From NCBI RefSeq assembly GCF_000018465.1, contig NC_010085.1, positions 1,500,001 through 1,532,000 of the forward strand: a DNA stretch of 32,000 bases, read 5' to 3'. The translations under genes and the position numbers were made by a program. Shown here one piece after another: positions 2,127 to 19,400 of the stretch. The first letter of the stretch is position 1. Every line of letters begins with the position of its first letter. This DNA is from Nitrosopumilus maritimus SCM1. Its GTDB lineage: Archaea; Thermoproteota; Nitrososphaeria; Nitrososphaerales; Nitrosopumilaceae. The notes under the pieces were generated by a model. The model ran no database searches. It had not been told where the DNA came from and worked only from the letters and a program-made list of their open reading frames with translations.

Positions 2127-3422
2127 TCAAACTACAATAATTTCTCGTTGTACTAGATTCTCAATTATGTTTAAGAATTGTTCATCAGTAATTTTTTCTT
2201 CATACCACCAACCTGCAGGAATTTGTACCCATTGAGGAATCTTCCATTGTGATTCAGAAACTACTTCACGCGTTGGAACAGATAGGATTTGTTTTTCAAA
2301 AAGAAAGTCAATTCCTTCTAAAAATTCTGAATCAGGAATTTGTTGAGTTGCCCACCAGTCAGCATTTTGTTTTACCCAAACAGGAACTGTAGGAAGTTCA
2401 GGAGGTAATCCTTTGTCAAAACCTGAAATCTTCAAAACACCTTGGGATTGAGGCTCAACAGTAAATGCAACATGCCAGAATCCCATATCATCAATGCTTT
2501 GGATAAATTCTATAGGTTCGTCATTTAGTGTGACAGAAAATTTTTCATTTCCAGAAATTGGAGCAAATTCAAAGTTTGCATATGTCTCTAATGGATAACT
2601 ATTGTAACCTCTAATTGTCATTGTTGTTCCAGATTCATCAAATTTTGCAGCTGAATACCATGCACCTGAATCGTATCTGAAATCAAAATCACCACCATTC
2701 TTCTTTGCAGTCACAGGAATTACAGTAGTATCAACTGGTGCAAAGCAACTATAGTAAAAGATATCCTCAGTTACTGAAGGATCAGGATACATTGTAAAGT
2801 CTAGAATTTCTCCAGGTTCAATTTTTTCAATATATTCGATATTTTGAGTAATATCTAGAACTTTTTCATATCCATGAACAACTGCAAAAATTTTTGGAAA
2901 GTGTATTGTTTCATTTCCAGTGTTTTGAATTCTGCCTGATATATGACCATCTTCATGTTTGACTAGTGTCTTATCATAAAGAATTTGGATTGGAACTGGA
3001 TTAGTCATTGTTTGTTCATAAATTAATTCAGGATTAACTAGAACTGGAGTGTTTGATTGTACTTCAGGAAATTTTATCTTAAATGGAATTTCTGTTCCAG
3101 CAGCAAGTGGAACATGCTGAATAGTTTTTGAAATTGTTTCAGAATTTTCAATTACAGAAACGGTAATTGTAGGAATTATTGCAAAATCATTTTCATTTTT
3201 AACATTACCAACTACAGTGTAAATTCCAGTTGAATCAAAATATCCCAAGTACTCATGTAATGGAACATAAACTTCAGCAAAACTCAAACTAGGAGAAAAC
3301 AGAATGATTGAGAAAAATCCTAGTAATAGAAGAATTTGTGGTTGAGAAACTCTAGAAAGAGTTGATGATATCTTCGAATCCAGAAGTTGGTTTTTCAAGT
3401 AGGCTTGGTCTATAGTCTTCAA
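2127..3422 (-). CDS. Secreted protein with duplicated beta-sandwich-like domains and two C-terminal 37-aa WW modules
   Basis: 431 aa. The signal peptide ends ...SPSLSFA|EVY. The two C-terminal modules are VPVWVKQNADWWATQQIPDSEFLEGIDFLFEKQILSV (2277-2387) and IPQWVQIPAGWWYEEKITDEQFLNIIENLVQREIIVV (2130-2240). The tracked start at 3422 is TTG, and a second in-frame TTG lies at 3398. Either start overlaps the upstream wHTH gene by 47-71 nt, so the true start is uncertain. Confidence 0.8.
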   Translation of the reverse strand: MKTIDQAYLKNQLLDSKISSTLSRVSQPQILLLLGFFSIILFSPSLSFAEVYVPLHEYLGYFDSTGIYTVVGNVKNENDFAIIPTITVSVIENSETISKTIQHVPLAAGTEIPFKIKFPEVQSNTPVLVNPELIYEQTMTNPVPIQILYDKTLVKHEDGHISGRIQNTGNETIHFPKIFAVVHGYEKVLDITQNIEYIEKIEPGEILDFTMYPDPSVTEDIFYYSCFAPVDTTVIPVTAKKNGGDFDFRYDSGAWYSAAKFDESGTTMTIRGYNSYPLETYANFEFAPISGNEKFSVTLNDEPIEFIQSIDDMGFWHVAFTVEPQSQGVLKISGFDKGLPPELPTVPVWVKQNADWWATQQIPDSEFLEGIDFLFEKQILSVPTREVVSESQWKIPQWVQIPAGWWYEEKITDEQFLNIIENLVQREIIVV

Positions 3423-3852
3423 CTAGTTTATCTATCAAGTCTCTGACTTTAATATGATATCTTTTTTTGAGTTGAACAACTTTTGTTTCTACTAGTCCAT
3501 CATCAACTAGTTGTGACAAATACAATGACACGGTTGATGGGGATTTGTTTACCTCTTTAACTAGTTGAGGAAATTCTAAACCATCTTCTTTGACTAGTGC
3601 AAGTAACAAATCACGTGGAGTTTGTTTTCTTAATGCTTTGATAACAATTGATTCATCTTCTGTAATTTGTGGAGGATAGAATCTAGCTTGTCTTGGACCA
3701 CGATCAGCTTTGATAACTCCGTTTCTTTCTAATTTATCTAGATAATGACTTAGTACTCCATTTTTTAATCCAGAAGAACGCATGATTTCACGGAATTGGA
3801 TTCCTGGATTTTTTTCTATTATTTCTTGAATTTGTGAATCTCTATCAGTCAT
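3352..3852 (-). CDS. Transcriptional regulator with two winged-helix (ArsR/MarR-like) domains
   Basis: 166 aa. The first wHTH is IQFREIMRSSGLKNGVLSHYLDKLERNGVI. The second is FPQLVKEVNKSPSTVSLYLSQLVDDGLVE. Its start overlaps the stop of the upstream membrane-protein gene by 8 nt. Confidence 0.75.
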   Translation of the reverse strand: MTDRDSQIQEIIEKNPGIQFREIMRSSGLKNGVLSHYLDKLERNGVIKADRGPRQARFYPPQITEDESIVIKALRKQTPRDLLLALVKEDGLEFPQLVKEVNKSPSTVSLYLSQLVDDGLVETKVVQLKKRYHIKVRDLIDKLVEDYRPSLLEKPTSGFEDIINSF

Positions 3853-4237
3853 TTCTAAACACTCCTAACGCTAGCAATCCTAATGTTGCAAAGGTCAATA
3901 AATGTCCTACCTCTGCAAGAGGCATAAATTCTAGATCATAGATGCTTGGCCATGTTGCATCAACTAACAAAACAACTTCAGCTGCAATAAAGTTGGCAAA
4001 TGCTATAGAGCTAAGTAAAAGTCGTTTTGTTCTTAATCGATAGTATGCAAATCCTGCAAGTATTGAGATGAAAACTGCAAGAGTAATTCCTCCAACATGT
4101 AAAAAGATGTGAGCGATATGATGCCCATGTAGTAAATGAGGGATGATTACTGGTAAAGCCAAAATTGCAACAACACCAGTAACTACAAGAGAAAATAGCA
4201 TAGATTTTTTCTCTAGTATCCTTTCAGCTCTAAACAA
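3845..4237 (-). CDS. Small polytopic membrane protein with a His-rich first helix end
   Basis: 130 aa (118 aa from the ATG at 4201) with about 4 predicted TM helices and the motif PHLLHGHHIAHIFLH. The tracked start at 4237 is TTG, and the ATG at 4201 (MLFSLVVTG...) is an equally good start. Confidence 0.6.
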   Translation of the reverse strand: MFRAERILEKKSMLFSLVVTGVVAILALPVIIPHLLHGHHIAHIFLHVGGITLAVFISILAGFAYYRLRTKRLLLSSIAFANFIAAEVVLLVDATWPSIYDLEFMPLAEVGHLLTFATLGLLALGVFRND

Positions 4238-4300
4238 AGTAATGAAATTTGATTAATTTTTCATTTAAAGCAACTGGTTCAATTCTCGAACTAGCATCGA

Positions 4301-6092: not shown

Positions 6093-7811
6093 TTATGATT
6101 GAACTTTCATGATTCCTTCTTTAATCAAGAATTGAATTCCTTGGATAAAGGCATCATCATCAATTGCGCCTTCTGCCCACCAACCTGCATTGTTTTTAAT
6201 CCATGCTGGAATTTCATTAGAACCTGTACCTTCACCTGCAGAGGTTGGGGGGATTTGCAAAATATTTTCTTTAACTAAATATTGAATTCCCTGAACAAAA
6301 GAACCATCATCTATTTGTCCAGCAGCCCACCATTCTGCATTGTTCTTAATCCATGCAGGAATTGCGGCCGGTGTTTGTTCTTCAGGTGTAGGCACAGTTT
6401 TACCAGTACTAGGACCTAACTCAATTATTCCTGAACCAATTCCTGCATAAGTCTCATCATATGCTAATCCAGTACCTAAGGCTCTAATGTCAATCCTATA
6501 GACTCCTTGTGATGGGACATAGATTTTCTTTATGTCAATTCCTTCAGTGGCCACTATTCCTGGCATTTGTGGATCATCTCCCAAAAAGGTCTCTAGGACT
6601 TCATCGTTTTCGTCAATAAATGATACAACATATCTCATATCTCGAATAAGTTCTCTATTTTCATCAAAGAATGTAATCTCAAATGGAATTTCATCTCCTG
6701 CGCCATAACTTCCATCCCATGAAATGTTAACAGTTGTTGGAACAGGTTCATAGTTTGTAGTGTCTACTAGATAAAATTCAGTTGATTGTTTTTCTATTTC
6801 ATCAAGTGGAACGAGTTTCAAATCCATTTTTGGATTTTCATAGTTTGCTTCACCTAATGTCTCGTTAATTCTTTGTAATTCTTGATTAGTAATTAGAAAG
6901 TGAACAACGTTAGTATCATCATATGAGTATGGATCATTTAGTAATGCTCTTTGATCAACCTCGATACCATTAACATATCCTTTGAATTGTTTACCTTCTG
7001 CATATGGTGCAAATGTTTTTGGGACTCTAACTTCTTCATGAACTACTTGGACCAAATCAACATATTCTGGAGTCCAGTCAAATGGCATATCAAATGAAAT
7101 TGAATTATCTGATTGATCAAAGTTGAAATTATCAACTTGATCATAGTATGTTTTGACAACAACTGGAATGTCTGCATTTGCAGTTTGTATCATAAAGTTT
7201 TGATCTTGTGCAATACTAACAAAAGTATCATAGCTTAACAAATTTGCCAAGATAGATTTTGGACTGGTTGCAGCTTCAATATCAACACGGATTTGATACA
7301 ATCCACCTTCTATGAATATTGGACCCGTAATTTCAGGTCTTGCACACACATCTAAATTCTCATCATTACAATCCGTACCATAAACAAATAGAGCACCAGG
7401 TGCACTGACATGTTCTGAACCATAATAAACAGAACATTGATGTAGATTTTCCTCATTACAATCAGTTTTTGGTGTTATTTTTACATCTAGTCGTCCATCC
7501 AAATCATAAAACAAGTTTCTAGCTAAAAGTTCTCCACTTTGCCAAACTTCTATTCTGTAGGTTACTTTGTCAAGATTGGTATCAGTCACAGTATCAAAGA
7601 AACGAACTTGCATGTTTGCGGTATCAACTTCACCTACTGTAATATCAGATGGAGTTAGTTGTGTGCTAACAGTCACTGCCATATCACCAAAAGAGATAGC
7701 AGGAGCTTGATCTCCACCTAGACCATGTCCAAAGACATCAGGTACTAATGCAGGTATTGTGAAAATTCCAATTATCGTAATGAATAACGCAAATTTGTTA
7801 TGCAATACCAA
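6093..7811 (-). CDS. Secreted multi-domain protein, paralog of 4301-5923, with a predicted N-terminal His and two C-terminal WW modules
   Basis: 572 aa. Only TTG starts are available (7811 or 7805). The signal peptide ends ...ALVPDVFG|HGLGGD. The WW modules are [37 protein letters not shown] (6252-6362) and [39 protein letters not shown] (6096-6212). Confidence 0.85.
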
Positions 7812-7915
7812 AACAATGTTAATTCCATATTTAAAGATGGCATAGTATTCCTATACGTGAGATTTTTTTTAAGAATGATGGTACGATTTTTATTTATCAA
7901 TTTTTGAAGTACGGT

Positions 7916-8743
7916 ATGAAGATTCTGTTTGTATTATTACTTATTCCATTTTTAATGGTTCCAGCATTTGCTGAAACTCAAACATTACCCACAGAAAAGA
8001 ATACTCTTGATGTTAAATTAACATACGATACCATTGAGCCAGGTATTCAAACTAAGATCAACATAGATTTTATTAATCCACAAACTCAAAAAGTTCAAGA
8101 ACACATTGACTATACAGTAGTTGTTTCAAAAGATGGTGAGACTGTATTTGGTCCAATTCCACTTACACATACTTCTCTGGGTTCTGTCAAAATCCCAATA
8201 GAATTTAATCGTGGTGAAGGAGTGTATTCAATGGACTTTGAAGTTGAAGGAATTTTATTCCAACCAATTCCAAGAGAGACTGTATCTTTTGATATTCAAG
8301 TAGGTGAAGCCAATGCACAACCAATTACACCACCTGAAGACAACAATGATGAGAATAATGGAGAAAATGGGGGTTGTCTTATTGCAACAGCAACATTTGG
8401 TTCAGAACTTGCACCACAAGTACAACAACTTAGGGAACTTAGAGACAACACAGTTCTCAAAACAAATTCAGGAATTACATTTATGACAACTTTTAATCAA
8501 TTCTATTATTCGTTCTCACCAGTTATTGCAGACTTTGAAAGAGAGCAACCATTATTCAAAGAAGTTATGAAAGTAACACTCACTCCAATGTTATCATCAT
8601 TATCATTGCTTAATCATGCAGATATTGATTCAGAACAAGAGATGTTAGGTTATGGCATATCCATAGTACTGCTAAATCTTGGAATGTATGTTGGAATTCC
8701 TATATTTGGAATTCTAAAGTTGTACCAATTTAGAAAAAACTAG
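7916..8743 (+). CDS. Secreted beta-sandwich protein with a CFI-box-type C-terminal domain (GC(L/F)IATA(T/A)(F/Y)GS...LRxxRD)
   Basis: The tracked ORF starts at the TTG at 7904, but the ATG at 7916 gives MKILFVLLLIPFLMVPAFA|ETQ. An Asn/Glu/Asp/Gly-rich acidic linker is followed by GGCLIATATFGSELAPQVQQLRELRDNTVL... (Cys codon at 8375-8377) and a hydrophobic tail. This matches the motif I recall for CFI-box-CTERM proteins. Confidence 0.8.
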   Translation: MKILFVLLLIPFLMVPAFAETQTLPTEKNTLDVKLTYDTIEPGIQTKINIDFINPQTQKVQEHIDYTVVVSKDGETVFGPIPLTHTSLGSVKIPIEFNRGEGVYSMDFEVEGILFQPIPRETVSFDIQVGEANAQPITPPEDNNDENNGENGGCLIATATFGSELAPQVQQLRELRDNTVLKTNSGITFMTTFNQFYYSFSPVIADFEREQPLFKEVMKVTLTPMLSSLSLLNHADIDSEQEMLGYGISIVLLNLGMYVGIPIFGILKLYQFRKN

Positions 8744-8802
8744 GATTCACTTATTGGAAATTCTAGTGAGGTTTTTATGTATCCAACAAAGTAAACTGTT
8801 TA

Positions 8803-9615
8803 ATGAAGACTATAGCAATTTGCTCTCTCTTCGTACTATTTGCAATGGTAGCTGGATTAGTTGCAACAACGCCAGCAGCATTTGCAAACCATCCAGAAGT
8901 CACAATCGTACCAGCATCAGGTTCTGGTGCACCAGGTTGTGAAGAAACAGCAGATGGATGTTACATTCCAAGTACTGCAACAGTTGATGTTGGAGGTGTT
9001 GTAATCATGTCAAATACTGACACTGCAGCACACACATACACTTCAGGAACTCCAGATGATGGACCAGACGGTATCTTTGATACTAGTTTGTTAATGGCCG
9101 GAAGTTCATTTGAATGGAGTCCAACTGAAGAAGGTGAATATCCTTACTTCTGTATGGTACATCCTTGGATGCAAGGTACGATTATAGCTGCAGCAGCAGG
9201 AGCTGACGATCATGGTGACGATGGCGGTGAATTAATGGTTTCAATTGCAGATTCACAAGTATTGGGTGGAACACAAATTGAACTTACATTCAGCGAATTA
9301 CACGTCAACTATGACATTACTGCAACACAAGGTGGCGAAGTAGTCCTACAAGAAACTAATCAACACGCAATGGAGTCTACAGCAACGCATCAAATTGATG
9401 CACTAGGTGCTGATGACAATCCAATTGATGTAGAAATTGTTTCTCTAGGAATTGGAGCACCAGGTGCTGAAGCAGATTGGACTGGACCAACAGGTGTAGT
9501 TGCAACTGCTAAAGTTGTTCCAGAATTTGGTACAATCGTAATGATGGTACTAACTGTTGCAATCATAAGCATTGTAGCAGTAACTGCAAAATCTAGAGTT
9601 ATTCCAAGATTTTAG
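8803..9615 (+). CDS. Plastocyanin-like blue copper protein with a PEFG-CTERM sorting signal
   Basis: 270 aa. The signal peptide ends ...TPAAFA|NHPE. The cupredoxin ligand pattern is ...AAHTYTS... and YFCMVHPWMQGTI (C-x2-H-x2-M). The C-terminus VVPEFGTIVMMVLTVAIISIVAVTAKSR (PEFG at 9520-9531) is the thaumarchaeal PEFG-CTERM architecture. Confidence 0.9.
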   Translation: MKTIAICSLFVLFAMVAGLVATTPAAFANHPEVTIVPASGSGAPGCEETADGCYIPSTATVDVGGVVIMSNTDTAAHTYTSGTPDDGPDGIFDTSLLMAGSSFEWSPTEEGEYPYFCMVHPWMQGTIIAAAAGADDHGDDGGELMVSIADSQVLGGTQIELTFSELHVNYDITATQGGEVVLQETNQHAMESTATHQIDALGADDNPIDVEIVSLGIGAPGAEADWTGPTGVVATAKVVPEFGTIVMMVLTVAIISIVAVTAKSRVIPRF

Positions 9616-9628
9616 GAATACTCTTTTT

Positions 9629-10258
9629 CTATTTTCTTTTTACTAAAGCAATTATCGCTAAGATTATAGCTGCTCCAGCAATCGATAATCCAAATATTGC
9701 AAAGTCATATGCTGCACCGCCATCGGATGTTACTTCGGTTTCTCCAGACTTTAGTTTAGAAACATCTTGTTGTAATGATGAGATTGCATTCTTTAGAGCA
9801 GCAACATCAGCAGTACCTTCACTACTTGTTGGTGGAAAATCTAAGACTGCAGTTGATTCTACATCTTCAATTGGGATTTTAATATCAACTGGAACACCAC
9901 GTATTTCTCCTTTCAGTTCTATCATGTATGTTCCAGTTTTAGTAGGGATGACTGGCGAGAAATAATAACCAGGTCTAGGATCAGAATTTACTTCAATTTT
10001 CTTTGCTGCACCACCAAACATAGTAGTTACATCAACATCTTTGAAAGCGCTTGTAACTCCTGTAAAGGTACCTTCTTTTTCTCCACGCTCAATAATTTTT
10101 AGCATGAATTCATTTCTAATTCCTACAACTGGAGGTTCAACTCCCCAACCTGCTTCAATTTCGTATTGTTCGACATTAACAGTAGTATGAGCAAATGAAG
10201 GAGCTATCATCCCAATAGAGAACAACAAACCAATAATACCAAAAATTATGATTTTCAT
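9629..10258 (-). CDS. Membrane-anchored extracytoplasmic beta-sandwich protein with a predicted N-terminal His (YcnI/CopC-like by architecture only)
   Basis: The tracked ORF extends to 10321, but the ATG at 10258 gives MKIIIFGIIGLLFSIGMIAPSFA|HTTVNVEQYEIEAGWG. It has a C-terminal TM anchor, FAIFGLSIAGAAIILAIIALVKRK. It is divergent from the CopC-CopD gene. Confidence 0.7.
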   Translation of the reverse strand: MKIIIFGIIGLLFSIGMIAPSFAHTTVNVEQYEIEAGWGVEPPVVGIRNEFMLKIIERGEKEGTFTGVTSAFKDVDVTTMFGGAAKKIEVNSDPRPGYYFSPVIPTKTGTYMIELKGEIRGVPVDIKIPIEDVESTAVLDFPPTSSEGTADVAALKNAISSLQQDVSKLKSGETEVTSDGGAAYDFAIFGLSIAGAAIILAIIALVKRK

Positions 10259-10360
10259 TGCTATCATTTTATAATTACAGGTTATTATCTTTACGTGAAT
10301 TGGTACAAAGATCGAATTCATGAAAACTGTTTAAATTATGAATGATTAATTGAAGAATGA

Positions 10361-13144
10361 ATGCAAAAGTTTCTGATTGTTTTATTGATGATGTCGTTTA
10401 TTTCAATTCCATTAGCATCAGCTCATCCTTTTACTGAGGAAACTATTCCAAGTTTAACATCTAGTGCTCCAGCTGGAACAACAGAAGTTATCGTATATTT
10501 TTCAGAACCAATTGATATTAACTTTAGTGAACTCAGAGTATTTGATACAAATGGAAATCAAATAGACAACAAAGATACGGCTTACTATGAAGGAGAATTA
10601 TCTCTGATCATTACAACATCACCATTGGAAGATGGAGTTTATACTGTATCAACCAAAGTTCTCTCCAAAGTAGATGGACATCTTGTTCCAGATGCATTCT
10701 TGTTTGCAGTTGGTGATGTTGTAATTGATCCCTCATTACTTGATGTAGAACGACCATCTGAAATCATATTTTTACCCGAAGCTGGTGCTAGATTCCCAGG
10801 ACTGATTGGTCAAACAATTGTCTTAGGTGCAGTAATTGCATCACTCATAATTTGGGGAACACAGAATAAACAACTAATCAGAGAAGAATTAGATAAGATT
10901 GGAAACTTCCATCAGGGAAAGTTTATGTCAATTACAGGAATTGGGCTTGTTTTAATTTTCATTTCTAATATTTTGATGATTGCAGTTCAGAGTATAAGAC
11001 TTGGGGTTTCTCCGCTTGATGCAATTCAAACGGATTTTGGAATAACATGGATATTGAGAATGAGCATTACAATAATTATACTAGGTATTTGGTTTAGACT
11101 TGATAGAAGCAAGTCACTATCAAAAAAGAATCAAATTCTATTGTTGGGAGCAATGCTTGCATTAATTTCAACTTCAAGTTTGATTGGTCACGGTGCAGCT
11201 AGTGAAAACATACCAGCATTAATACTTGATTACATTCACAATTTAGTTTCAGGAGTTTGGATAGGCGGAATTATTTACTTCGTATTTATTTTACTTCCAA
11301 CATTCTCTCAACTAAAAGAGACACAACGAGAAAAGATGAGTCTGTTAATGATTCCTCGATTCTCAATTACATTTATCATTGCTGTAGGAGTGATCATAAT
11401 CACAGGTCCAACATTGATGTGGTTTCTAGAAAGTGATATTAGATTAATTACAGAATCGATTTATGGTCAATTAATTATTCTAAAGATTTCAATTGCAGCA
11501 GTAATAATTGCATTTGGGGGATTTTTTCAATTCAAATTACAAAAGAAGGCAGAAAAGAATCTGGAATCAGGAAAAATTTCTGTTCATAAAAAATTAAAAA
11601 AATCGCTCAAAGTTGACGTAGTACTAGGAATAGTACTTCTAGGAGTTGTTGCATTAATTACAAATGCAACACTACCAGCAGGAGAAATCCAAAAAATTGA
11701 TGCACAAGAGATAATTTACGGATTTGAAACTCTGGAATTTACTGAAAATGCAAAATTTGACATTGACATTTCGCCATTTTCAAGTGGCTCAAACACAATT
11801 CTAGTTAAAGTTAGTGACTTTGAGGGAAATCCACTCTACGATTCAAATCAGCTTAAAGTCAAGGTATCAAACCCATCAAAGAATATCTCACCAATAGAAG
11901 TACCAATGGAGATAATCAAACAGGATAAAAATAGACCAATAGAATTCAAAGGTGAAATGACATTTGGGTTTTCAGGAGAATGGTTAATGGAAGTTGAGGC
12001 ACAAAGAACTGAAAATGCAAATGAATCAAAGCTTTTGAATTTACTAGTAAAACCAAGACTGACTGACATTCAGACACAAGTTATCGAATACGAACTCCCA
12101 AAAGATTCAAAACCACTTTTCCCATTGTATGATGGACGAGATACACTTTGGGTAAGTGATGCATCAGCTCCACGTTTGTGGGAATTTTCACTTGAAACTC
12201 AAGAGTTTACATCATATTCATTTGATGGATTGACTACAACATTTCTAACACAAGACAAAGACGGTAAAATTTGGTTTACAGATACTCCCAGAAATCAAAT
12301 TGGATTCATAGACCCTCAAACAAAAGAGATTATAACAAAAACAATTCCAAAACTTGATCCTGTTATTTCAGACAATACTCCACTTTTCATAAAAGCAGAC
12401 TTTGATGGAAATATTTGGATTACAATTGTTAACAAAGACAGAATTGTAAAATATATACCAGAAAATGATGAGTTTGAAGAGATTGTTCTTCCAGGAAAAG
12501 AGAACTTGCCATTTGCATTAGATATTGATGTAGATGGAAAGATGTGGTATACAACAACTGGTGCAGGAAATATTGGATATATTGATCCTAAAGACAATCA
12601 AATTACTCAATTTTCAAATGATCCACCATTACAAGGACCTGAGGCTTTGCTCTTTGATGAAGATGGAAACATCTGGATTGCAGAGCATACAGGCTTGGCA
12701 ATTACCAAGTTTAACCCAGTTTTAGAGACATTTGAGAGAATTACCGTGCCTAATGATGAAGCATTACCGTTTGGTATGACATTTGATAGATATGGAAATG
12801 TTTGGTTTGCTCAACATACAATAGATAGTATTGGAGCATATGATCCGGATAACAATAATTTGATTGAAGTACCAGTTCCTTCAGAAACATCCTTTGTACA
12901 ATTCATGACATCAGATGGAGACAGTAATGTTTGGTTTGTTGAACAACAAACAAGTAAGATTGGTACAATAAAGATGACAGAAATTCCAGTTACTGCATCA
13001 CAAATTCAATCATCAGGAGAATTTGAATTAAAATACACAGAACTTGCATCGCCACTAATTGCATTAGGAATTATTGCAACATCTTTGTTTTATGTGAAGA
13101 GTATTCAAGATAAAAGAAGACTAAATGAATTAATTAATTCTTAG
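10361..13144 (+). CDS. CopC-CopD fusion protein extended by a beta-sandwich domain, a Vgb/NHL-like beta-propeller and a C-terminal TM anchor
   Basis: 927 aa. The signal peptide ends PLASA|HPFTEE. The CopC pattern reads (...EVIVYFSEPI...GVYTVSTKVLSKVDGHLVPDAFLFAVG). About 8 TM helices with HGAASEN form a CopD-like region (roughly aa 140-440). A sandwich domain follows at aa 455-560. Repeated propeller blades follow (DGKIWFTDTPRNQIGFIDPQTKEI, GNIWITIVNKDRIVKYIP, GKMWYTTTGAGNIGYIDP, GNIWIAEHTGLAITKFNP, GNVWFAQHTIDSIGAYDP, SNVWFVEQQTSKIGTI). The final TM is LIALGIIATSLFYV. Confidence 0.9.
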   Translation: MQKFLIVLLMMSFISIPLASAHPFTEETIPSLTSSAPAGTTEVIVYFSEPIDINFSELRVFDTNGNQIDNKDTAYYEGELSLIITTSPLEDGVYTVSTKVLSKVDGHLVPDAFLFAVGDVVIDPSLLDVERPSEIIFLPEAGARFPGLIGQTIVLGAVIASLIIWGTQNKQLIREELDKIGNFHQGKFMSITGIGLVLIFISNILMIAVQSIRLGVSPLDAIQTDFGITWILRMSITIIILGIWFRLDRSKSLSKKNQILLLGAMLALISTSSLIGHGAASENIPALILDYIHNLVSGVWIGGIIYFVFILLPTFSQLKETQREKMSLLMIPRFSITFIIAVGVIIITGPTLMWFLESDIRLITESIYGQLIILKISIAAVIIAFGGFFQFKLQKKAEKNLESGKISVHKKLKKSLKVDVVLGIVLLGVVALITNATLPAGEIQKIDAQEIIYGFETLEFTENAKFDIDISPFSSGSNTILVKVSDFEGNPLYDSNQLKVKVSNPSKNISPIEVPMEIIKQDKNRPIEFKGEMTFGFSGEWLMEVEAQRTENANESKLLNLLVKPRLTDIQTQVIEYELPKDSKPLFPLYDGRDTLWVSDASAPRLWEFSLETQEFTSYSFDGLTTTFLTQDKDGKIWFTDTPRNQIGFIDPQTKEIITKTIPKLDPVISDNTPLFIKADFDGNIWITIVNKDRIVKYIPENDEFEEIVLPGKENLPFALDIDVDGKMWYTTTGAGNIGYIDPKDNQITQFSNDPPLQGPEALLFDEDGNIWIAEHTGLAITKFNPVLETFERITVPNDEALPFGMTFDRYGNVWFAQHTIDSIGAYDPDNNNLIEVPVPSETSFVQFMTSDGDSNVWFVEQQTSKIGTIKMTEIPVTASQIQSSGEFELKYTELASPLIALGIIATSLFYVKSIQDKRRLNELINS

Positions 13145-13952
13145 AAAGTAGTCCAACAGATTTTATTCCCATGGTACTAGCTAGTAATCCAATTGAGATC
13201 AAAACAATCGTTCCTGCAGGAGTAATATCAAAGATGTAAGAAACTAAAATTCCTGTAACAACTGAGAAAATTGAAAAACTCATAGAAATAATTGCAGTTT
13301 GTTTGAAACCCTTACCATACATTATTGCGGATACATTAGGAATTACAAATAGGGCAGAAATTAATAAAACACCAACAAGTTGAATTGAAGTAACAACAGT
13401 AATTCCTGCCATAAACACTATAAGGTAATTTATTTTTTCTACAGGAATTCCGCTAACTTTAGCTTGTTCTTCATTAAATGTAGAATAAAGAATCTGACGA
13501 TACAACACCAATAGCACAATTAGAATTGCACCAGTAAGAGCAAGTATCAAAACTGTGTCATCAACACTGACAAGTAGAATACTACCAAAGAGAAAACTAA
13601 AGATATCAATTGTAAATCCCCCGGATAATCCAATAACTACGAGCCCAACTGCTATACCTGAGGACAAAAGTACTGCTATTGATGCATCACCTGATATGTT
13701 GAATCGGTCTTTGATTCTTGTAATGATTAATGCACTGACAATTGATACGCCATATGCTGTCCATAATGGATAGACTCCTGCCAAAAGACCTAATGCAATT
13801 CCACCAAAAGATGAATGTGCTATTGCATCACCAAATAGAGAATAACGTCTAAGAACTAAGAACAATCCTACAACCGAACAAAGAATTGCAATAGCAATTC
13901 CAGAAATTAATGCTCTATGCATAAAACTATAGGTTAGAATTTCAAAAGACAT
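13134..13952 (-). CDS. Metal ABC transporter permease (ABC-3 / ZnuB-TroD family)
   Basis: 272 aa, polytopic. The N-terminus FMHRALISGIAIAILCSVVGLFLVLRRYSLFGDAIAHSSFGG is typical of the ABC-3 family. It is the last gene of a three-gene operon. Confidence 0.9.
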   Translation of the reverse strand: MSFEILTYSFMHRALISGIAIAILCSVVGLFLVLRRYSLFGDAIAHSSFGGIALGLLAGVYPLWTAYGVSIVSALIITRIKDRFNISGDASIAVLLSSGIAVGLVVIGLSGGFTIDIFSFLFGSILLVSVDDTVLILALTGAILIVLLVLYRQILYSTFNEEQAKVSGIPVEKINYLIVFMAGITVVTSIQLVGVLLISALFVIPNVSAIMYGKGFKQTAIISMSFSIFSVVTGILVSYIFDITPAGTIVLISIGLLASTMGIKSVGLLSKN

Positions 13953-13954
13953 GA

Positions 13955-14677
13955 TTAATGATGATGCATATGCTCCTGCATAGATGCTTCAGAATACTGT
14001 TTGACAAGCTCATCATCAGAGAAGAATTTTTCAGATTCTCCATGGAAGAATAACGTTCTGTTAAGACAAGCAACATGATTAGCTAGTTGGTTTACTGCAT
14101 CCAAATCATGAGAAGACCAAATGATTGTAATTTTTTGTTTAGAGTTTAGTTCACGTAAGATACTGTAGAATAATTCTATACTTTGCTGATCAATTCCTGT
14201 AATCGGTTCATCTAAAATCAAAAGTTTTGGATTATTTACCAAAGCTTTTGCAATAAAGACTCGTTGTAGTTGTCCTCCTGATAATTCTCCTATTCTTCTA
14301 TTTCGGAGTTCATGTATCCACAATTGTTGCAAAATTTCATTAATTTTATTTTCATCAGATTCATTTCTCAGTCCCATCCTAACAACATCAGTAACAGTTG
14401 CCGGAAAATTTTTTTCAAAAATTGGTTTTTGGGGAACATATCCAATTTCTTTAAGATAATTTTTTGAAATTCTGATATCCTTATCAAAAAATTTGATTTC
14501 ACCTTTGTACTTTGTATTGAGACCAAGCATGCAATCAAAAAGAGTGGATTTTCCAGCGCCATTTGGGCCAATTATGCCTAGAAAATTACCTTGATTAACC
14601 ACAAAACTGACATCATCAAGAGCTTTTACGTCAGGATATTGAACTGAAAGGTTACTTATTTCAACTGCTTTCAACAC
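13955..14677 (-). CDS. Metal ABC transporter ATP-binding protein (ZnuC/TroB-like)
   Basis: 240 aa. It has Walker A GPNGAGKST, signature LSGGQLQR, Walker B LLILDEP, and a His-rich tail MQEHMHHH. Confidence 0.9.
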   Translation of the reverse strand: MLKAVEISNLSVQYPDVKALDDVSFVVNQGNFLGIIGPNGAGKSTLFDCMLGLNTKYKGEIKFFDKDIRISKNYLKEIGYVPQKPIFEKNFPATVTDVVRMGLRNESDENKINEILQQLWIHELRNRRIGELSGGQLQRVFIAKALVNNPKLLILDEPITGIDQQSIELFYSILRELNSKQKITIIWSSHDLDAVNQLANHVACLNRTLFFHGESEKFFSDDELVKQYSEASMQEHMHHH

Positions 14678-15591
14678 AAGGCCTCCTGTAGATTCTCAAG
14701 ATTTTGTTTCATTTTAGAAATGTATGTCCCTTCAGATGCAATTTCTAATGGAGAGAGGACCAAAACTTGTCCACCAATTTCATGTGCAATGGTTTCAGAA
14801 GTTCTAGTGTCAACTGTTTCTTCACTAAAAATTATTTTAATATTATGTTCTTTAGCTGTTGAAATTACATTTTCTAATGTTTTTGCAGTTGCTTCTCCGT
14901 GTGGATCAGTTGAAGATAGAATTGTATGTTGATGTAAATCATATTCATCTGCAAAATATGAAAAAGCATCATGAAATGCAATAAAATCGGAATTACAATT
15001 AGACAAATCATTTCTAATTTGTAAATCCAATAAAGTTAGTTCTTGAATGTAAGATTCTGCATTAGATTGATAATATTGTTGATTTTCTGGATCATGTTTT
15101 GAAAATTCATCAGCAATATTTTGAACTTGGATTTTTGCAAAAACTGGATTTAACCAAATATGAGGATCTCCTGTTTCACGATTAGGTTCATCCATATGTT
15201 CATCTTCTTCATATTCTTTTACTAAAATTCCATTACTTGTGTCAACAATATTTCCTTGATAGTTATTCTCATCAAGTTTATCTACCCAGTCTTCAAAACC
15301 AATTCCATTAATAATTATCATATCAGATATTTGCATTTTTTGAACATCTTTGATTGTTGGTTCCCAATCATGAGGTTCAACTCCAACTGGAACAAGCAAT
15401 ATTGCATCAACTTTGTCTTGTCCTATATTTTGTACAAATTCATGTAACGGATCAAATGATGAAATTACTTGTAATTTTGACTTTTCAGAATATATTGAAT
15501 CTGTATTTGGACTTATTCCATAAACTGCAAAGGAACTTAATGGAATTACTACTGCAATTGCAATTATCGCAAGTTTGGTTTGTGTATTCAT
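14671..15591 (-). CDS. Metal ABC transporter substrate-binding protein (TroA/ZnuA cluster A-I)
   Basis: 306 aa with a signal/anchor helix. It carries HDWEP, an acidic/His loop EEDEHMDEPNRETGDPHIWLNP, and FHDAFSYF, which are hallmarks of the ZnuA/TroA family. It overlaps the ATPase gene by 7 nt. Confidence 0.9.
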   Translation of the reverse strand: MNTQTKLAIIAIAVVIPLSSFAVYGISPNTDSIYSEKSKLQVISSFDPLHEFVQNIGQDKVDAILLVPVGVEPHDWEPTIKDVQKMQISDMIIINGIGFEDWVDKLDENNYQGNIVDTSNGILVKEYEEDEHMDEPNRETGDPHIWLNPVFAKIQVQNIADEFSKHDPENQQYYQSNAESYIQELTLLDLQIRNDLSNCNSDFIAFHDAFSYFADEYDLHQHTILSSTDPHGEATAKTLENVISTAKEHNIKIIFSEETVDTRTSETIAHEIGGQVLVLSPLEIASEGTYISKMKQNLENLQEALC

Positions 15592-15632
15592 GAAGCAATT
15601 AATCGAAATTTTATTAATAAATCTATAAAATC

Positions 15633-15678
15633 TTAATAATATTAATTACTAAACTTATAAGATAATTAATAATATTAA
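15633..15678. promoter_or_regulatory. Two exact copies of TTAATAATATTAA in the divergent promoter between the ABC operon and the nikR-like gene
   Basis: Exact 13-mers lie at 15633-15645 and 15666-15678, 33 bp centre to centre, each containing the palindrome TAATATTA. One copy lies just upstream of the likely TATA of the ABC operon. The other lies between the likely TATA and the ATG of the nikR-like gene. The very AT-rich background weakens the significance. Confidence 0.3.
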
Positions 15679-15682
15679 ACAT

Positions 15683-16066
15683 ATGCCAATAGTCTCAATC
15701 TCACTAAATGATGAGATCCTATCTGAATTAGACAAACTCCAATCAAGTATGGGATTTACAGGTAGATCAGAGGCGATCAGAGCAGGAATTAGAGCATTTG
15801 TTTCAGAAGAAAAACAAAAGGCAGATTTGTCGGGCAACATTCATGCAATTCTTTTGGTAGTACACAATGATGAGTTTGATCATGTTGTTTCTGGAATAAC
15901 TCACAACTTTGAAGATTTGATCACGACACATCTTCACAGCAAAATTGACAAGGAAAAATGCATGGAGCTTTTTGTAATTGATGGAGATGCAGAGAAAGTT
16001 TCGACCATGACAAAAGATTTTCAAATAAACAAGAATATGGATACAGTGAAGTTAGTAGCTCTTTGA
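15683..16066 (+). CDS. nikR: NikR-family ribbon-helix-helix metalloregulator
   Basis: 127 aa. The N-terminal RHH is VSISLNDEILSELDKLQSSMGFTGRSEAIRAGIRAFV. The C-terminal ACT-like domain has spaced His/Cys residues (HAILLVVHNDEFDHV...HLHSKIDKEKC). The gene is divergent from a metal ABC importer. Confidence 0.8.
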   Translation: MPIVSISLNDEILSELDKLQSSMGFTGRSEAIRAGIRAFVSEEKQKADLSGNIHAILLVVHNDEFDHVVSGITHNFEDLITTHLHSKIDKEKCMELFVIDGDAEKVSTMTKDFQINKNMDTVKLVAL

Positions 16067-16197
16067 AAAATAATCCAAATGCTGAAAATTTTCAAGAAGA
16101 ATTATGTTTTATTATTGTACTAACAATTGCTTGTAAATTTTCACAATAGTAGAGTTTTAAGTGAACAATACCAAAAATACTTTCAGGCCATAGTAGA

Positions 16198-16479
16198 TTG
16201 AAACATATCATATTGCTAGGAATTCTAGCCGTATCAATAGTTATTGGATTTTTTAGTATTCAGTATATTATGGATTCAGATTTTGATATGATGAAAATGT
16301 TTTGTGAGAAACATGATGATCAAATGTATGAATTAGCAGAAAAAATGAGAGATGTTAGATTATTACAAAAAGAACCAAATCTAGGAAGCGATGAATATGA
16401 TAGGTTAGAACAAGAATTTCAAAAATTTACTGATCAAGCATTAGAGAGAAAAAAATGGTATGTTGAAAATTGTGTATAA
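16198..16479 (+). CDS. Hypothetical membrane-anchored helical protein
   Basis: 93 aa from a TTG start, with one N-terminal TM helix and then a charged helical region with two Cys. I did not recognise a family. Confidence 0.45.
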   Translation: MKHIILLGILAVSIVIGFFSIQYIMDSDFDMMKMFCEKHDDQMYELAEKMRDVRLLQKEPNLGSDEYDRLEQEFQKFTDQALERKKWYVENCV

Positions 16480-16564
16480 TTTCTATAGACTAGAGTAATT
16501 TTTGAAGATATTAGGTTGGGTCATACACAGTTTTACCAAATATTTGGCATTGTATAAAATGGAG

Positions 16565-16792
16565 TTAATGTCTAGATACATTTTTTCGTGTGTGAAATGA
16601 TTTTCGATATTTGCTTGTTCTAGGAGTCACACGTAAGACACAACTACAGCAAGGACATCTCACATCAAGGCAAATCATAAAAACATCACATACTGGACAT
16701 CGTTTTTGATTGTTTTCATATTTGATGGTTTGGCCCTTGATTTTTATTTTGAGTCTTTCACACTTACCTTTACACAAATTCATTGTAAACAT
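16565..16792 (-). CDS. Small basic Cys-rich zinc-ribbon protein (copy 1)
   Basis: 75 aa with CKGKC...CPVC...CPCCSC and then the basic tail LRVTPRTSKYRK. It is clearly homologous to 28638-28874. It is divergent from a DsbA-like gene. Confidence 0.65.
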   Translation of the reverse strand: MFTMNLCKGKCERLKIKIKGQTIKYENNQKRCPVCDVFMICLDVRCPCCSCVLRVTPRTSKYRKSFHTRKNVSRH

Positions 16793-16879
16793 CCATTATT
16801 TTTAATATCAATCAAACTTTGATTTGCAAAGTATACCAAATAAATATACAAATTAAAATAAATTTGTTAGTGAAAACTT

Positions 16880-17671
16880 TTGGAAAGTAAAGAGAATGTA
16901 AATAAGATAATTGTAAAAAAATCAACTTTTACGAGTTTGGTGGTTGTACTAGTAATAACAATTGCAATTTCTGCTTTCTTTGCAGGCAATTATGTTTCAA
17001 ACATGAATTCTGATAAAGTTACACAATCAGATCTTAATAATGCATTTGCAAAACTAGAAGAAAAAATTGGAACCAGTACTCAACCATCTATTCAACCAAA
17101 TACACAACCGATCAAAGTCTCAATAGATGATGATCCTATGAAAGGAGACCCAAATGCTCCAATTACCATCATAGAATTTTCGGATTATGAATGTCCATTT
17201 TGTGGAAAATTTTACACAGATACACTTCCTTTAATTGAAGAAAATTACATCAACACAGGAAAAGTAAATTTTGTTTACAGAGATTTTCCAATTCAAAGTA
17301 TACATCCTAATGCTGTCCATACAGCAATGGCTGCAGAATGTGCAGATGACCAAGAAATGTTTTGGCCATATCATGATATGATTTTTGAGAATAAAAGTAC
17401 GTGGGAAAAACAAAGAGGTCAAAGTCTAGTAAGTGAGTTGGTACAATATGCAGATGTTCTTGGATTAGATACTGAAGAATTTACCACATGTCTAGAATCA
17501 AACAAACATCTTGATGAAGTAAGAAATGATCTACAAGATGGACAAAGTTATGGAATTAGTGGCACCCCTGGATTTTTTATTGGAAATGATAATTCAGGAT
17601 ACATCAAAGTTTCAGGAGCAAAACCATATCAAACTTTTGCAGAAATTCTAGAAGGGATGCTAAGACGATGA
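16880..17671 (+). CDS. Membrane-anchored DsbA/BdbD-like thiol:disulfide oxidoreductase (copy 1)
   Basis: 263 aa. TTG is the only start upstream of the TM anchor. The thioredoxin-fold motif is ITIIEFSDYECPFCGKFY, followed by GISGTPGFFIG (cis-Pro loop). Confidence 0.85.
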   Translation: MESKENVNKIIVKKSTFTSLVVVLVITIAISAFFAGNYVSNMNSDKVTQSDLNNAFAKLEEKIGTSTQPSIQPNTQPIKVSIDDDPMKGDPNAPITIIEFSDYECPFCGKFYTDTLPLIEENYINTGKVNFVYRDFPIQSIHPNAVHTAMAAECADDQEMFWPYHDMIFENKSTWEKQRGQSLVSELVQYADVLGLDTEEFTTCLESNKHLDEVRNDLQDGQSYGISGTPGFFIGNDNSGYIKVSGAKPYQTFAEILEGMLRR

Positions 17672-17699
17672 TTGTGTAATTAAATGTCACATACAGGTG

Positions 17700-18122
17700 T
17701 TATTTGACGACCAGTACTGGAACTTTGCATTTGTGCATAACAGAATTTGAAACACTTCCAAGAAATGCCTCTTTGGCATTACCTATGCCTCTTGCACCAA
17801 TTACTACCATGTCAAAGTTGCCTTTCTTTGCAGCATTTACAATTTGTGTAGCAGTGTTGCCACCACCAGTGGCATACTTGAATTTTGCACCAGCACGCTC
17901 ACACTTTTGCATTGCAGGACCAATTGCTTTTACAGCTTTGTCTTGTGCTTTATCTCTCATTGCTTTGGTGTATTTTATTCCAGCAGTAACAGGCAAGTGG
18001 AATACATAATACCCAGTTATTTCAGCACCACTTTCGTTTGCAATTGTTATTGCTTTATCTAATCCTCTCATAGAGTTTGCAGAACCATCTAGAGGGACTA
18101 GAATTTTTTGAAATTTGCCCAT
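17700..18122 (-). CDS. Universal stress protein (UspA family)
   Basis: The ATG at 18122 gives MGKFQKILVPLDGSANS..., with MVVIGARGIGNAKEAFLGSVSNSVMHKCKVPVLVVK at the C-terminus, the canonical Usp ATP-binding motif. The 37 extra codons in the tracked ORF (to 18233) look non-coding. Confidence 0.85.
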   Translation of the reverse strand: MGKFQKILVPLDGSANSMRGLDKAITIANESGAEITGYYVFHLPVTAGIKYTKAMRDKAQDKAVKAIGPAMQKCERAGAKFKYATGGGNTATQIVNAAKKGNFDMVVIGARGIGNAKEAFLGSVSNSVMHKCKVPVLVVK

Positions 18123-18431
18123 GTAAGAATCAGATTTTACTTGTATAAAGAATTTTTGTTTAGACAAGATCTGCAAAACTGTTTTTTCTTTGAACAAGTC
18201 TATTTTTCTATAGTTATAACATAGACTCTTCATGGATTGTTCAAAGTCTGCATGAATTGTTGATTATTCATGGTCAATCATCAAGGATGCTCAACATGAT
18301 CTAAAAAAATCAAAATCCCTGTAACGTGATTTAGATAAGATATTTTGAAAAAAATTTTTGGCTAACAACAAATACCTGTATTTCAAATGTAAGACACCAT
18401 TCTTTAATATGCAATATGTGGAGGAAGCATA

Positions 18432-19400
18432 ATGAGGAAAAAACGCTCATCAAAAAATAAAAAATTTGTATTAATTGTAATTCCCATAATCATAGTTGGA
18501 ATTCTTCTAGCTCTGCCTATACAAAATAACCAGAATTCCCCAACCTCAAAACTTCAGGGTCCATGGAATGACATTCATGGTGTTGGAATGTTTCTTTCTG
18601 GCAATGATGATACCCTTTACCTTGCTACTCATCAGGGATTGTTTGAGAAAAAGGATTCAGGGTGGCAGCATGTTGGTAATGACAATGCAGATTTGATGGG
18701 ATTTTCTATGAATCACGACACGGAGAAAATGTATTCTAGTGGACATCCAAAAACAGGAGGGAATTTAGGATTTAGAATGAGTGACGATAAAGGAAATTCA
18801 TGGACAACTATTTCCAAAGTAAAAAATACCCCAGTTGATTTTCATGCAATGACTGCAAGCCAAGCACAAAATGGTTTGATTTATGGCTCTCCGGGAGGGG
18901 GAAGTGAACTCTTTGTAACATCAGATGACGGAACATCTTGGAATTCCCTTGATATTCCAAATAAAATAATCTCACTTGCAGCAGACCCATTAGATCCTAA
19001 TCGCGTATATGCAGGAACAATGTCCGGACTGTATGTCAGTAACAATCAGGGAAAACAATGGACTGCAGTTGATTCAGACATTGAGAAAGGAGTGATTACA
19101 GGAATAGGATTTTCATCGGATGGCAAAACCATGTATGTATTTTCCACATTAGATGGAAATGGAATGATTGTAAAATCAATTGACGGGGGGAAAACAATGG
19201 TTAAGACACAAAGCCAAATTGCTGATGCCAAGGGTGTTTGGAATTTTGCCCCGGGTCGTGATGGGGAAATTTATGCAATAGCAGCACAACAAGTAGCAAG
19301 CGGATTGGCAATGAGTGTTTACAAAACAGATGATGGCGGGGCTACGTGGGTTTTAGAGGGCACAAATAATTCAGAACTAGCACTGACTGACGAATCTTAA
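18432..19400 (+). CDS. Exported BNR/Asp-box beta-propeller protein (glycosylhydrolase-like, non-catalytic type)
   Basis: 322 aa with an N-terminal anchor and Asp-box repeats SDDKGNSWT, TSDDGTSWN, SNNQGKQWT, SIDGGKTM and KTDDGGATW. The block IHGVGM...LYLATHQGLF...YSSGHP...VDFHAM resembles the F510_1955-like family as I recall it. A GGAGG lies 7 nt upstream of the ATG. Confidence 0.8.
   Translation: MRKKRSSKNKKFVLIVIPIIIVGILLALPIQNNQNSPTSKLQGPWNDIHGVGMFLSGNDDTLYLATHQGLFEKKDSGWQHVGNDNADLMGFSMNHDTEKMYSSGHPKTGGNLGFRMSDDKGNSWTTISKVKNTPVDFHAMTASQAQNGLIYGSPGGGSELFVTSDDGTSWNSLDIPNKIISLAADPLDPNRVYAGTMSGLYVSNNQGKQWTAVDSDIEKGVITGIGFSSDGKTMYVFSTLDGNGMIVKSIDGGKTMVKTQSQIADAKGVWNFAPGRDGEIYAIAAQQVASGLAMSVYKTDDGGATWVLEGTNNSELALTDES

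Follow-up and report, generated by a model that had tools for sequence, protein, structure and literature searches.

Ammonia-oxidising archaea are among the most abundant microbes of ocean and soil, and their energy metabolism depends largely on copper enzymes. The means by which they acquire copper have been described as poorly understood (PMC7785015). The present analysis concerns a gene of Nitrosopumilus maritimus SCM1, located within a 32,000-nucleotide stretch of its genome (NC_010085.1, positions 1,500,001 to 1,532,000; hereafter the window, in which positions are numbered), which codes for a 927-residue protein whose closest named relatives occur in Nitrosopumilus species (80-91% identity). 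The protein combines, in order, a signal peptide, a CopC domain, an eight-helix CopD domain, a YtkA-like β-sandwich, a seven-bladed β-propeller with the fold of virginiamycin B lyase (Vgb) and a ninth transmembrane helix. It faces a divergently transcribed partner gene, and a conserved 18-nucleotide element lies between the two (Table 1).

Table 1. The CopC-CopD-propeller gene of N. maritimus SCM1, its domains and the adjoining features (positions in the window)
Feature	Position	Strand	Basis and remarks
CopC-CopD-propeller gene	10361-13144	+	One ATG-to-stop open reading frame, 927 residues
Signal peptide, residues 1-21	10361..10423	+	Hydropathy scan; cleavage predicted after ASA, leaving His22 as first mature residue
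CopC domain, predicted Cu(II)-only type, residues 22-120	10424..10720	+	Pfam; putative ligands His22, Asp105, His107
CopD membrane domain, residues 140-440, eight transmembrane helices	10778..11680	+	Pfam, NCBIfam, hydropathy, model
YtkA-like β-sandwich, outside the cell, residues 462-565	11744..12055	+	Weak Pfam match; model strands only
Vgb-fold seven-bladed β-propeller, outside the cell, residues 570-875	12068..12985	+	Pfam, PDB match, model
Propeller signature Glu775-His776; His819; Gln847	12683-12688; 12815-12817; 12899-12901	+	Alignments
Ninth transmembrane helix, C-terminal anchor, residues 892-915	13034..13105	+	Hydropathy, charge; model helix 892-926
Conserved 18-nucleotide element TTCGATCTTTGTACCAAT between two divergent core promoters	10299..10316	-	16/18 positions of the Nitrososphaera viennensis motif
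Partner gene, 209 residues from the second in-frame Met cluster	9629..10258	-	Conserved linkage, fold search

A preliminary description of the locus had proposed a single fused protein, and the alternative of two genes or a frameshift is ruled out, as the frame is uninterrupted, with full-length matches and no internal stops, in about 250 genomes. The domain limits given at that time (sandwich at about residues 456-560, propeller at about 576-880) are accurate to about 10 residues. A hydropathy scan recovers the signal peptide, the eight helices of CopD (residues 147-438) and a ninth helix at 894-915, which can be aligned in all three clades of homologues and is followed by a short basic cytoplasmic KRR tail before the stop codon at 13144. 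The Ala21-His22 pair at the predicted cleavage site is unchanged across 50 aligned homologues. Residues 439-893 form a 455-residue acidic stretch (75 Asp or Glu versus 37 Lys or Arg), and the basic residues alternate between loops according to the positive-inside rule; CopC and residues 439-893 are therefore placed outside the cell and the KRR tail inside. Pfam, hydropathy and charge thus agree with the earlier view of a Vgb/NHL-like propeller outside the cell, pinned there by a final transmembrane helix. An AlphaFold2 model, built from a 50-sequence alignment of the three clades, has a mean predicted local distance difference test (pLDDT) of 78 and a predicted template-modelling score (pTM) of 0.50.

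The first part of the protein can be recognised as a CopC-CopD fusion of the type found in Bacillus YcnJ, as had been suggested, since both Pfam models are matched above their cut-offs: CopC (PF04234) over residues 22-117 with 39.7 bits against 23.3, and CopD (PF05425) over residues 331-432 with 55.1 bits against 32.1. The NCBIfam CopD alignment extends over residues 152-433, and there is a weak match of the CopC region to the structure of YcnJ CopC (9c14). The equivalog cut-offs of NCBIfam are missed for CopC (37 versus 95 bits) and for CopD (NF033808; 87.8 versus 195 bits), and the latter score makes the protein a relative of CopD from Pseudomonas and Escherichia coli without equivalog status. 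The CopC domain contains no Met and possesses the mature N-terminal His and the D-x-H motif that the C0-1 subclass requires, which points to a site for Cu(II) only. Conservation was counted in 30 aligned representatives, each less than 50% identical to the others; His22, Asp105 and His107 of CopC are retained in all 30, as are His277, Asp290 and His293, which are located at the outer ends of the fourth and fifth transmembrane helices of CopD.

The sandwich that follows is matched weakly by YtkA (PF13115; residues 465-545, 15.2 bits versus a cut-off of 25.9), and a 36%-identical homologue (P0137) exceeds the threshold with 32.1 bits. Several further homologues have PF13115 as a pre-computed match, the location and the all-β fold of the domain are compatible with YtkA, and the first 565 residues or so thus appear to follow the plan of YcnJ. 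The invariant residues of this domain, Pro472, Gly476, Asn478, Gly539 and Trp541, look structural. Bacillus YcnJ is composed of CopC, CopD and YtkA, both end domains being extracellular (PMC12362106), and all three contribute to copper oxidase function (PMC13344008). The His residues of its CopC and CopD are needed for growth under copper starvation, and its YtkA domain aids CuA assembly (PMC13344008, PMC12362106). The preliminary description had counted the sandwich as an extra relative to YcnJ and had estimated the addition at about 480 residues; as YcnJ itself carries YtkA (PMC12362106, PMC13344008), the real addition amounts to about 360 residues, and nothing beyond the propeller and the final helix is new.

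The propeller matches Pfam Vgb_lyase (PF24684) with 161.8 bits against a cut-off of 50 (E = 2e-47) and PDB entry 2z2n with E = 1.5e-25. In the model, where its pLDDT is about 90, it consists of 28 strands arranged as seven blades of four, strand 570-578 closing blade 7; of the six or seven blades that had been envisaged, seven is thus the number that stands. Foldseek superimposes it on Vgb (2z2n) with a target template-modelling score of 0.93 and a root-mean-square deviation of 1.8 Å at 24% identity. Vgb is represented in the PDB by the wild type and, in complex with quinupristin, by the inactive H270A variant (2z2p). The catalytic His270 of Vgb pairs in the HMMER alignment with Gln847, which is Gln in 29 of the 30 representatives. 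His228, Glu268 and Glu284 of Vgb, which we take to be its other Mg2+-binding or catalytic residues, pair with Phe804, Phe845 and Gln862. The NCBIfam models for Vgb(A) and Vgb(B) score 84.4 and 75.3 bits, far under their cut-off of 600. An active streptogramin lyase is ruled out by the change of the catalytic residue together with these scores, for which reason the "lyase" name is misleading, as the preliminary description had warned, and the database entry "virginiamycin B lyase family protein" is not to be taken as antibiotic resistance.

The conservation of the propeller is concentrated in a few polar residues. The whole protein contains no Cys and eight His; two of the latter vary and belong to cytoplasmic loops, and the six that face outward are all invariant. 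Exactly two belong to the propeller, His776 and His819, and both are present in 30 of 30 representatives, equalling the CopC ligands and the conserved residues of CopD. A cluster of His, Met and Cys on the propeller face, for which a search had been recommended, is therefore not what the propeller carries. Glu775 is retained in 26 of the 30 and is elsewhere Asp or Gln. In the model, His776 and His819 directly follow strand B at equivalent positions of the adjacent blades 5 and 6, Pro803-Phe804-Gly805 begin strand A of blade 6, and Gln847 stands at the start of strand A of blade 7. By the usual geometry of propellers, these residues would be situated on the top face, round the central depression, where the Vgb site lies; the latter occupies blades 6 and 7 (PMC8916777). 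Blades 5-7 are also more conserved than blades 1-4 (41% versus 28% between Nitrosopumilus and Nitrososphaera). The generic Vgb-like propellers compared and a stand-alone paralogue in the window lack the signature, and a membrane-anchored propeller that stands alone (P0226) possesses it. The paralogue, a Vgb-family propeller of 524 residues, is encoded at 30045-31619 on the + strand (Pfam E = 1.3e-22), and a second propeller paralogue is found elsewhere in the N. maritimus genome, at 1094082-1095005 (541-residue frame).

Such a pattern may be read in more than one way. The propeller may be an active metal-dependent lyase or lactonase that acts on an extracellular organic substrate, for example a copper-chelating ligand, so that copper becomes available to CopC. 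The Vgb fold belongs to an enzymatic family, and conserved polar residues would lie here at the position of the Vgb active site (PMC8916777); a His/His/Glu/Gln set that does not vary although overall identity falls to 25% is a pattern typical of catalytic sites. Moreover, the structural neighbours that Foldseek finds for the sandwich and propeller together comprise, besides immunoglobulin-like/propeller proteins, a naturally occurring protein in which a copper sandwich is joined to an active propeller lactonase, the Cu/Zn-superoxide dismutase-lactonase of Deinococcus (PMC12362111). Nevertheless, the catalytic His and the presumed Mg2+ ligands of Vgb are all replaced, no candidate substrate is known, and no biosynthetic or ligand-related genes are found nearby, either in the window or in the neighbourhoods of the distant clade, all of which makes such an enzyme quite improbable.

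The propeller may, alternatively, be a passive scaffold, i.e., a spacer or, as the preliminary description had suggested, a docking platform in the pseudo-periplasm for apo-cuproproteins, the S-layer or a partner, in which the His residues are structural. NHL- and Vgb-like propellers often bind protein or RNA, filamin-NHL and Bacteroides immunoglobulin-like/propeller proteins are among the structural neighbours, tethering at both ends suits a fixed platform, and the YtkA domain of YcnJ acts together with other proteins in CuA assembly (PMC13344008). Protein interfaces, on the other hand, rarely hold a few invariant polar residues while the remainder drifts to 25% identity. The conservation pattern thus points to a defined polar pocket in preference to a broad protein interface, and a purely passive role appears rather unlikely, the more so in view of the partner gene discussed below.

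The architecture is widely conserved among ammonia-oxidising archaea. Among 301 sampled genomes of the class, in which matches were counted if full-length and devoid of internal stops, it occurs in 190 of 191 Nitrosopumilaceae, in 9/10 members of a second family and in 40/43 members of a third (Nitrososphaeraceae, with larger soil genomes), and a representative of Nitrosocaldaceae also has it in full length; the families of the class that do not oxidise ammonia yielded nothing or partial matches only. Nitrososphaera proteins that bear the name "copper resistance protein CopC" contain the same domains. When 1.84 billion cluster representatives were scanned, about 35 full-length clusters were recovered, down to 26% identity; the most distant of them (about 25% identity) come from genomes of soil and peat with the label Bathyarchaeota or Bathyarchaeia, whose contigs reach 1.4 Mb. 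Two short bacteria-labelled contigs with matches are probably mis-binned. This search, which had been proposed as a check on the locus, thus found the linkage of CopC, CopD and propeller across three clades, and the propeller is not absent from all relatives.

The fusion is missing from one genus of Nitrososphaeraceae, probably Nitrosocosmicus, in which the CopC genes stand alone and the propellers are unrelated; separate copC and copD genes have been published for Nitrosocosmicus (PMC12448741). A stand-alone copy of the same propeller subtype was sought in this genus, and the three candidates proved to be generic, about 25% identical and lacking the signature. Two Nitrososphaera-type genomes (G217:C1:1212166-1217587 and G226:C1:2355353-2360789) have a pair of CopCD genes separated by about 1 kb, of which one includes the propeller (about 1000 residues) and the other ends after the YtkA-like domain (about 680 residues). 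Such pairs offer a natural comparison of CopCD function with and without the propeller.

Archaeal amoA was not found in five Bathyarchaeia-labelled genomes, with N. maritimus as positive control (E = 4.9e-115). In this clade the neighbours of the gene are an ArsR-like regulator, two cupredoxins, a CtaG-type oxidase assembly factor, a cytochrome b and a Rieske protein. In one such metagenome-assembled genome (L048, Bathyarchaeota-labelled, on a 776-kb contig and without amoA), the partner gene, the CopCD-propeller gene, those neighbours and an EB_dh-family protein stand together at 7247-18772, which looks like an aerobic respiratory and copper cluster. The presence of the gene in this clade, beside respiratory and oxidase-assembly genes, ties it to aerobic copper metabolism generally and not to ammonia oxidation.

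The partner gene codes for a protein with a signal peptide, a His at the N-terminus after cleavage, an immunoglobulin-like sandwich, a coiled coil and a C-terminal transmembrane anchor. A homologue adjoins the CopCD-propeller gene in 47 of 61 loci, representing all three clades, the orientation being divergent in ammonia oxidisers and co-directional in the Bathyarchaeia-labelled clade. His24, a GW..EP motif and further residues are invariant among the homologues, and among specific fold matches the copper proteins CrdA and FetP rank best. Identity with true YcnI (DUF1775) is not supported, as no Pfam match was obtained in 12 members and no YcnI appeared in the PDB profile or fold searches; only the layout of N-terminal His, sandwich and C-terminal anchor is common to both. 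In four genomes of the fusion-less genus (G102, G141, G153, G177), short N-terminal-His sandwich proteins are encoded divergently from stand-alone CopC genes, sometimes as several pairs per genome, so the pairing of a His-protein with CopC survives without CopD fusion or propeller. Since weaker relatives of the partner pair with stand-alone CopC where the propeller is lacking, the partner goes with CopC, not with the propeller; a specific coupling to the propeller is thereby ruled out, which also weakens the case for the propeller as a dock.

The intergenic element resembles a copper-limitation motif reported upstream of genes of Nitrososphaera viennensis that are induced by copper limitation (PMC7785015). 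In 31 Nitrosopumilus loci the core of the element, TTTGTACCAAT, occupies the same place with a conservation of 90% or more, and an element of this type, in the opposite orientation, also occurs in Nitrososphaera loci. As a genome-wide regulon marker the motif was rejected, for its 10 hits, versus 6 for a control pattern, are not significant alone; among the similar hits, one lies inside a gene and one beside glutamine synthetase. A second copy with 2 mismatches is located in the window at 4273-4290 (- strand), 36-53 nucleotides upstream of a 130-residue open reading frame (3845-4237, - strand) that overlaps the gene for a 166-residue double winged-helix regulator of ArsR/HVO_0163 type (3352-3852, - strand). 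This regulator is 28% identical (E = 6e-16) to the one beside the CopCD-propeller gene in the Bathyarchaeia-labelled clade and is a candidate for acting on the motif. In N. viennensis under copper limitation, both CopC/D genes, an exported protein encoded between them and an ArsR regulator are raised 4- to 7-fold (PMC7785015 supplement). A genome of the same genus has a propeller-bearing and a propeller-less CopCD gene about 1 kb apart, and such a pair would fit the induced locus.

Copper-related genes also surround the fusion within the window, namely those for a cupredoxin, multicopper oxidases and a ZIP transporter. An ATP-binding cassette importer of ZnuB/ZnuC/ZnuA type (13134-16066) converges on the 3' end of the CopCD gene with an 11-nucleotide overlap, and a NikR-like regulator lies beyond it. 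The adjacency of ZnuB and ZnuC is retained in nearly all Nitrosopumilus loci examined.

Taken together, the protein is probably, though by no means certainly, a YcnJ-type protein for the acquisition or hand-off of copper, in which the propeller adds a further binding site; the nature of the ligand in its pocket is our inference. The frame of copper acquisition appears well supported by homology to YcnJ, from which transport itself would follow, and by genomic context. Cu(II) would be captured outside the cell by His22, Asp105 and His107 of CopC, and would probably be exchanged between CopC and the N-terminal-His partner protein. Copper would then pass to His277, Asp290 and His293 of CopD at the outer mouth of the helix bundle, from where it would be imported or handed off to membrane and extracytoplasmic copper enzymes. 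The ninth helix would keep the propeller beside the membrane. A pocket formed by Glu775-His776, His819 and Gln847 with Phe804 and Asp828, which by strand position would correspond to the face and blades of the Vgb substrate and Mg2+ site, would hold copper, or a copper-carrying ligand or partner, and would thus feed or unload the CopC/CopD relay. One may tentatively go further and suggest that the invariant His776 and His819 form a third extracellular site for copper, or for a copper-ligand complex, by which ammonia-oxidising and related aerobic archaea would draw on organically complexed copper or pass copper directly to their many surface copper enzymes. Such a site would be an archaeal extension of the CopC/CopD relay for which no bacterial counterpart has been described.

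Several points weigh against a role in copper acquisition that involves the propeller. In the literature library searched, no experiment on the 927-residue protein or on any propeller-bearing homologue was found, and no paper there links a propeller with CopC and CopD. His and conserved Met are lacking in the YtkA-like domain. The clustering of His776, His819 and Gln847 is deduced from strand positions and the register with Vgb, and the arrangement of domains in the model is unreliable, its pTM being only 0.50. The lack of the fusion in one genus implies that the propeller module is dispensable in some ammonia oxidisers. Finally, proteomes of Nitrosopumilus include the protein, its abundance in three strains of the genus is higher under H2O2 (PMC6593220), and CopC/D of N. 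maritimus is down-regulated under copper limitation according to work cited in PMC7785015. These data suit a role in uptake less well than those from N. viennensis.

The same observations lend themselves to a different function, namely copper tolerance or defence against oxidative stress by sequestration or buffering at the cell surface. The historical "copper resistance" names in the family, and the reported lack of known copper efflux systems in genomes of ammonia-oxidising archaea (PMC9723733), are in line with it. Nonetheless, the Cu(II)-only type of CopC occurs in organisms in which CopCD serves uptake (PMC7785015), copper import has been linked to YcnJ and to E. coli YebZ (PMC13344008, PMC11923076), and copper limitation strongly induces the orthologous cluster of N. 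viennensis, so that a tolerance protein is considered highly improbable and acquisition or hand-off is retained as the preferred function. Published work treats the gene simply as "CopC/D", whereas the version that is near-universal in ammonia-oxidising archaea has a large and strongly conserved extra domain. His776 and His819 are now defined as the residues for a direct mutational test of its part in copper handling.

The closest known system is YcnJ of Bacillus subtilis, encoded in the ycnKJI operon. The archaeal protein resembles it in the order of CopC, CopD and a putative YtkA domain, in the outside/membrane/outside topology, in the N-terminal His and D-x-H motif and in a conserved His of CopD, and at both loci a neighbouring gene codes for a membrane-anchored sandwich protein with an N-terminal His after cleavage. 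It differs from YcnJ in the 360 or so further residues that form the seven-bladed propeller and the ninth transmembrane helix, and in a YtkA-like domain that is weakly recognisable and devoid of His; the locus itself is archaeal, its nearby regulator is an ArsR-like double winged-helix protein and not YcnK, and the neighbour matches DUF1775 neither in sequence nor in the fold search. The YobA-YebZ-YebY (AZY) system of E. coli and CopC/CopD of Pseudomonas have the CopC and CopD families in common with it, and an import role has been proposed for them, yet their components are separate proteins without YtkA, propeller or terminal anchor. Vgb (2Z2N/2Z2P) is likewise a seven-bladed propeller and a member of PF24684; unlike this soluble cytoplasmic enzyme, the archaeal propeller is joined to a transporter in one chain and anchored to the membrane. 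The Cu/Zn-superoxide dismutase-lactonase of Deinococcus radiodurans (PDB 9M58/9M59) also joins a copper-binding β-sandwich to a propeller in one exported chain, but its propeller is six-bladed, of SGL type, with a Ca2+ site and proven lactonase activity, and it has neither a transporter nor a transmembrane anchor (PMC12362111).

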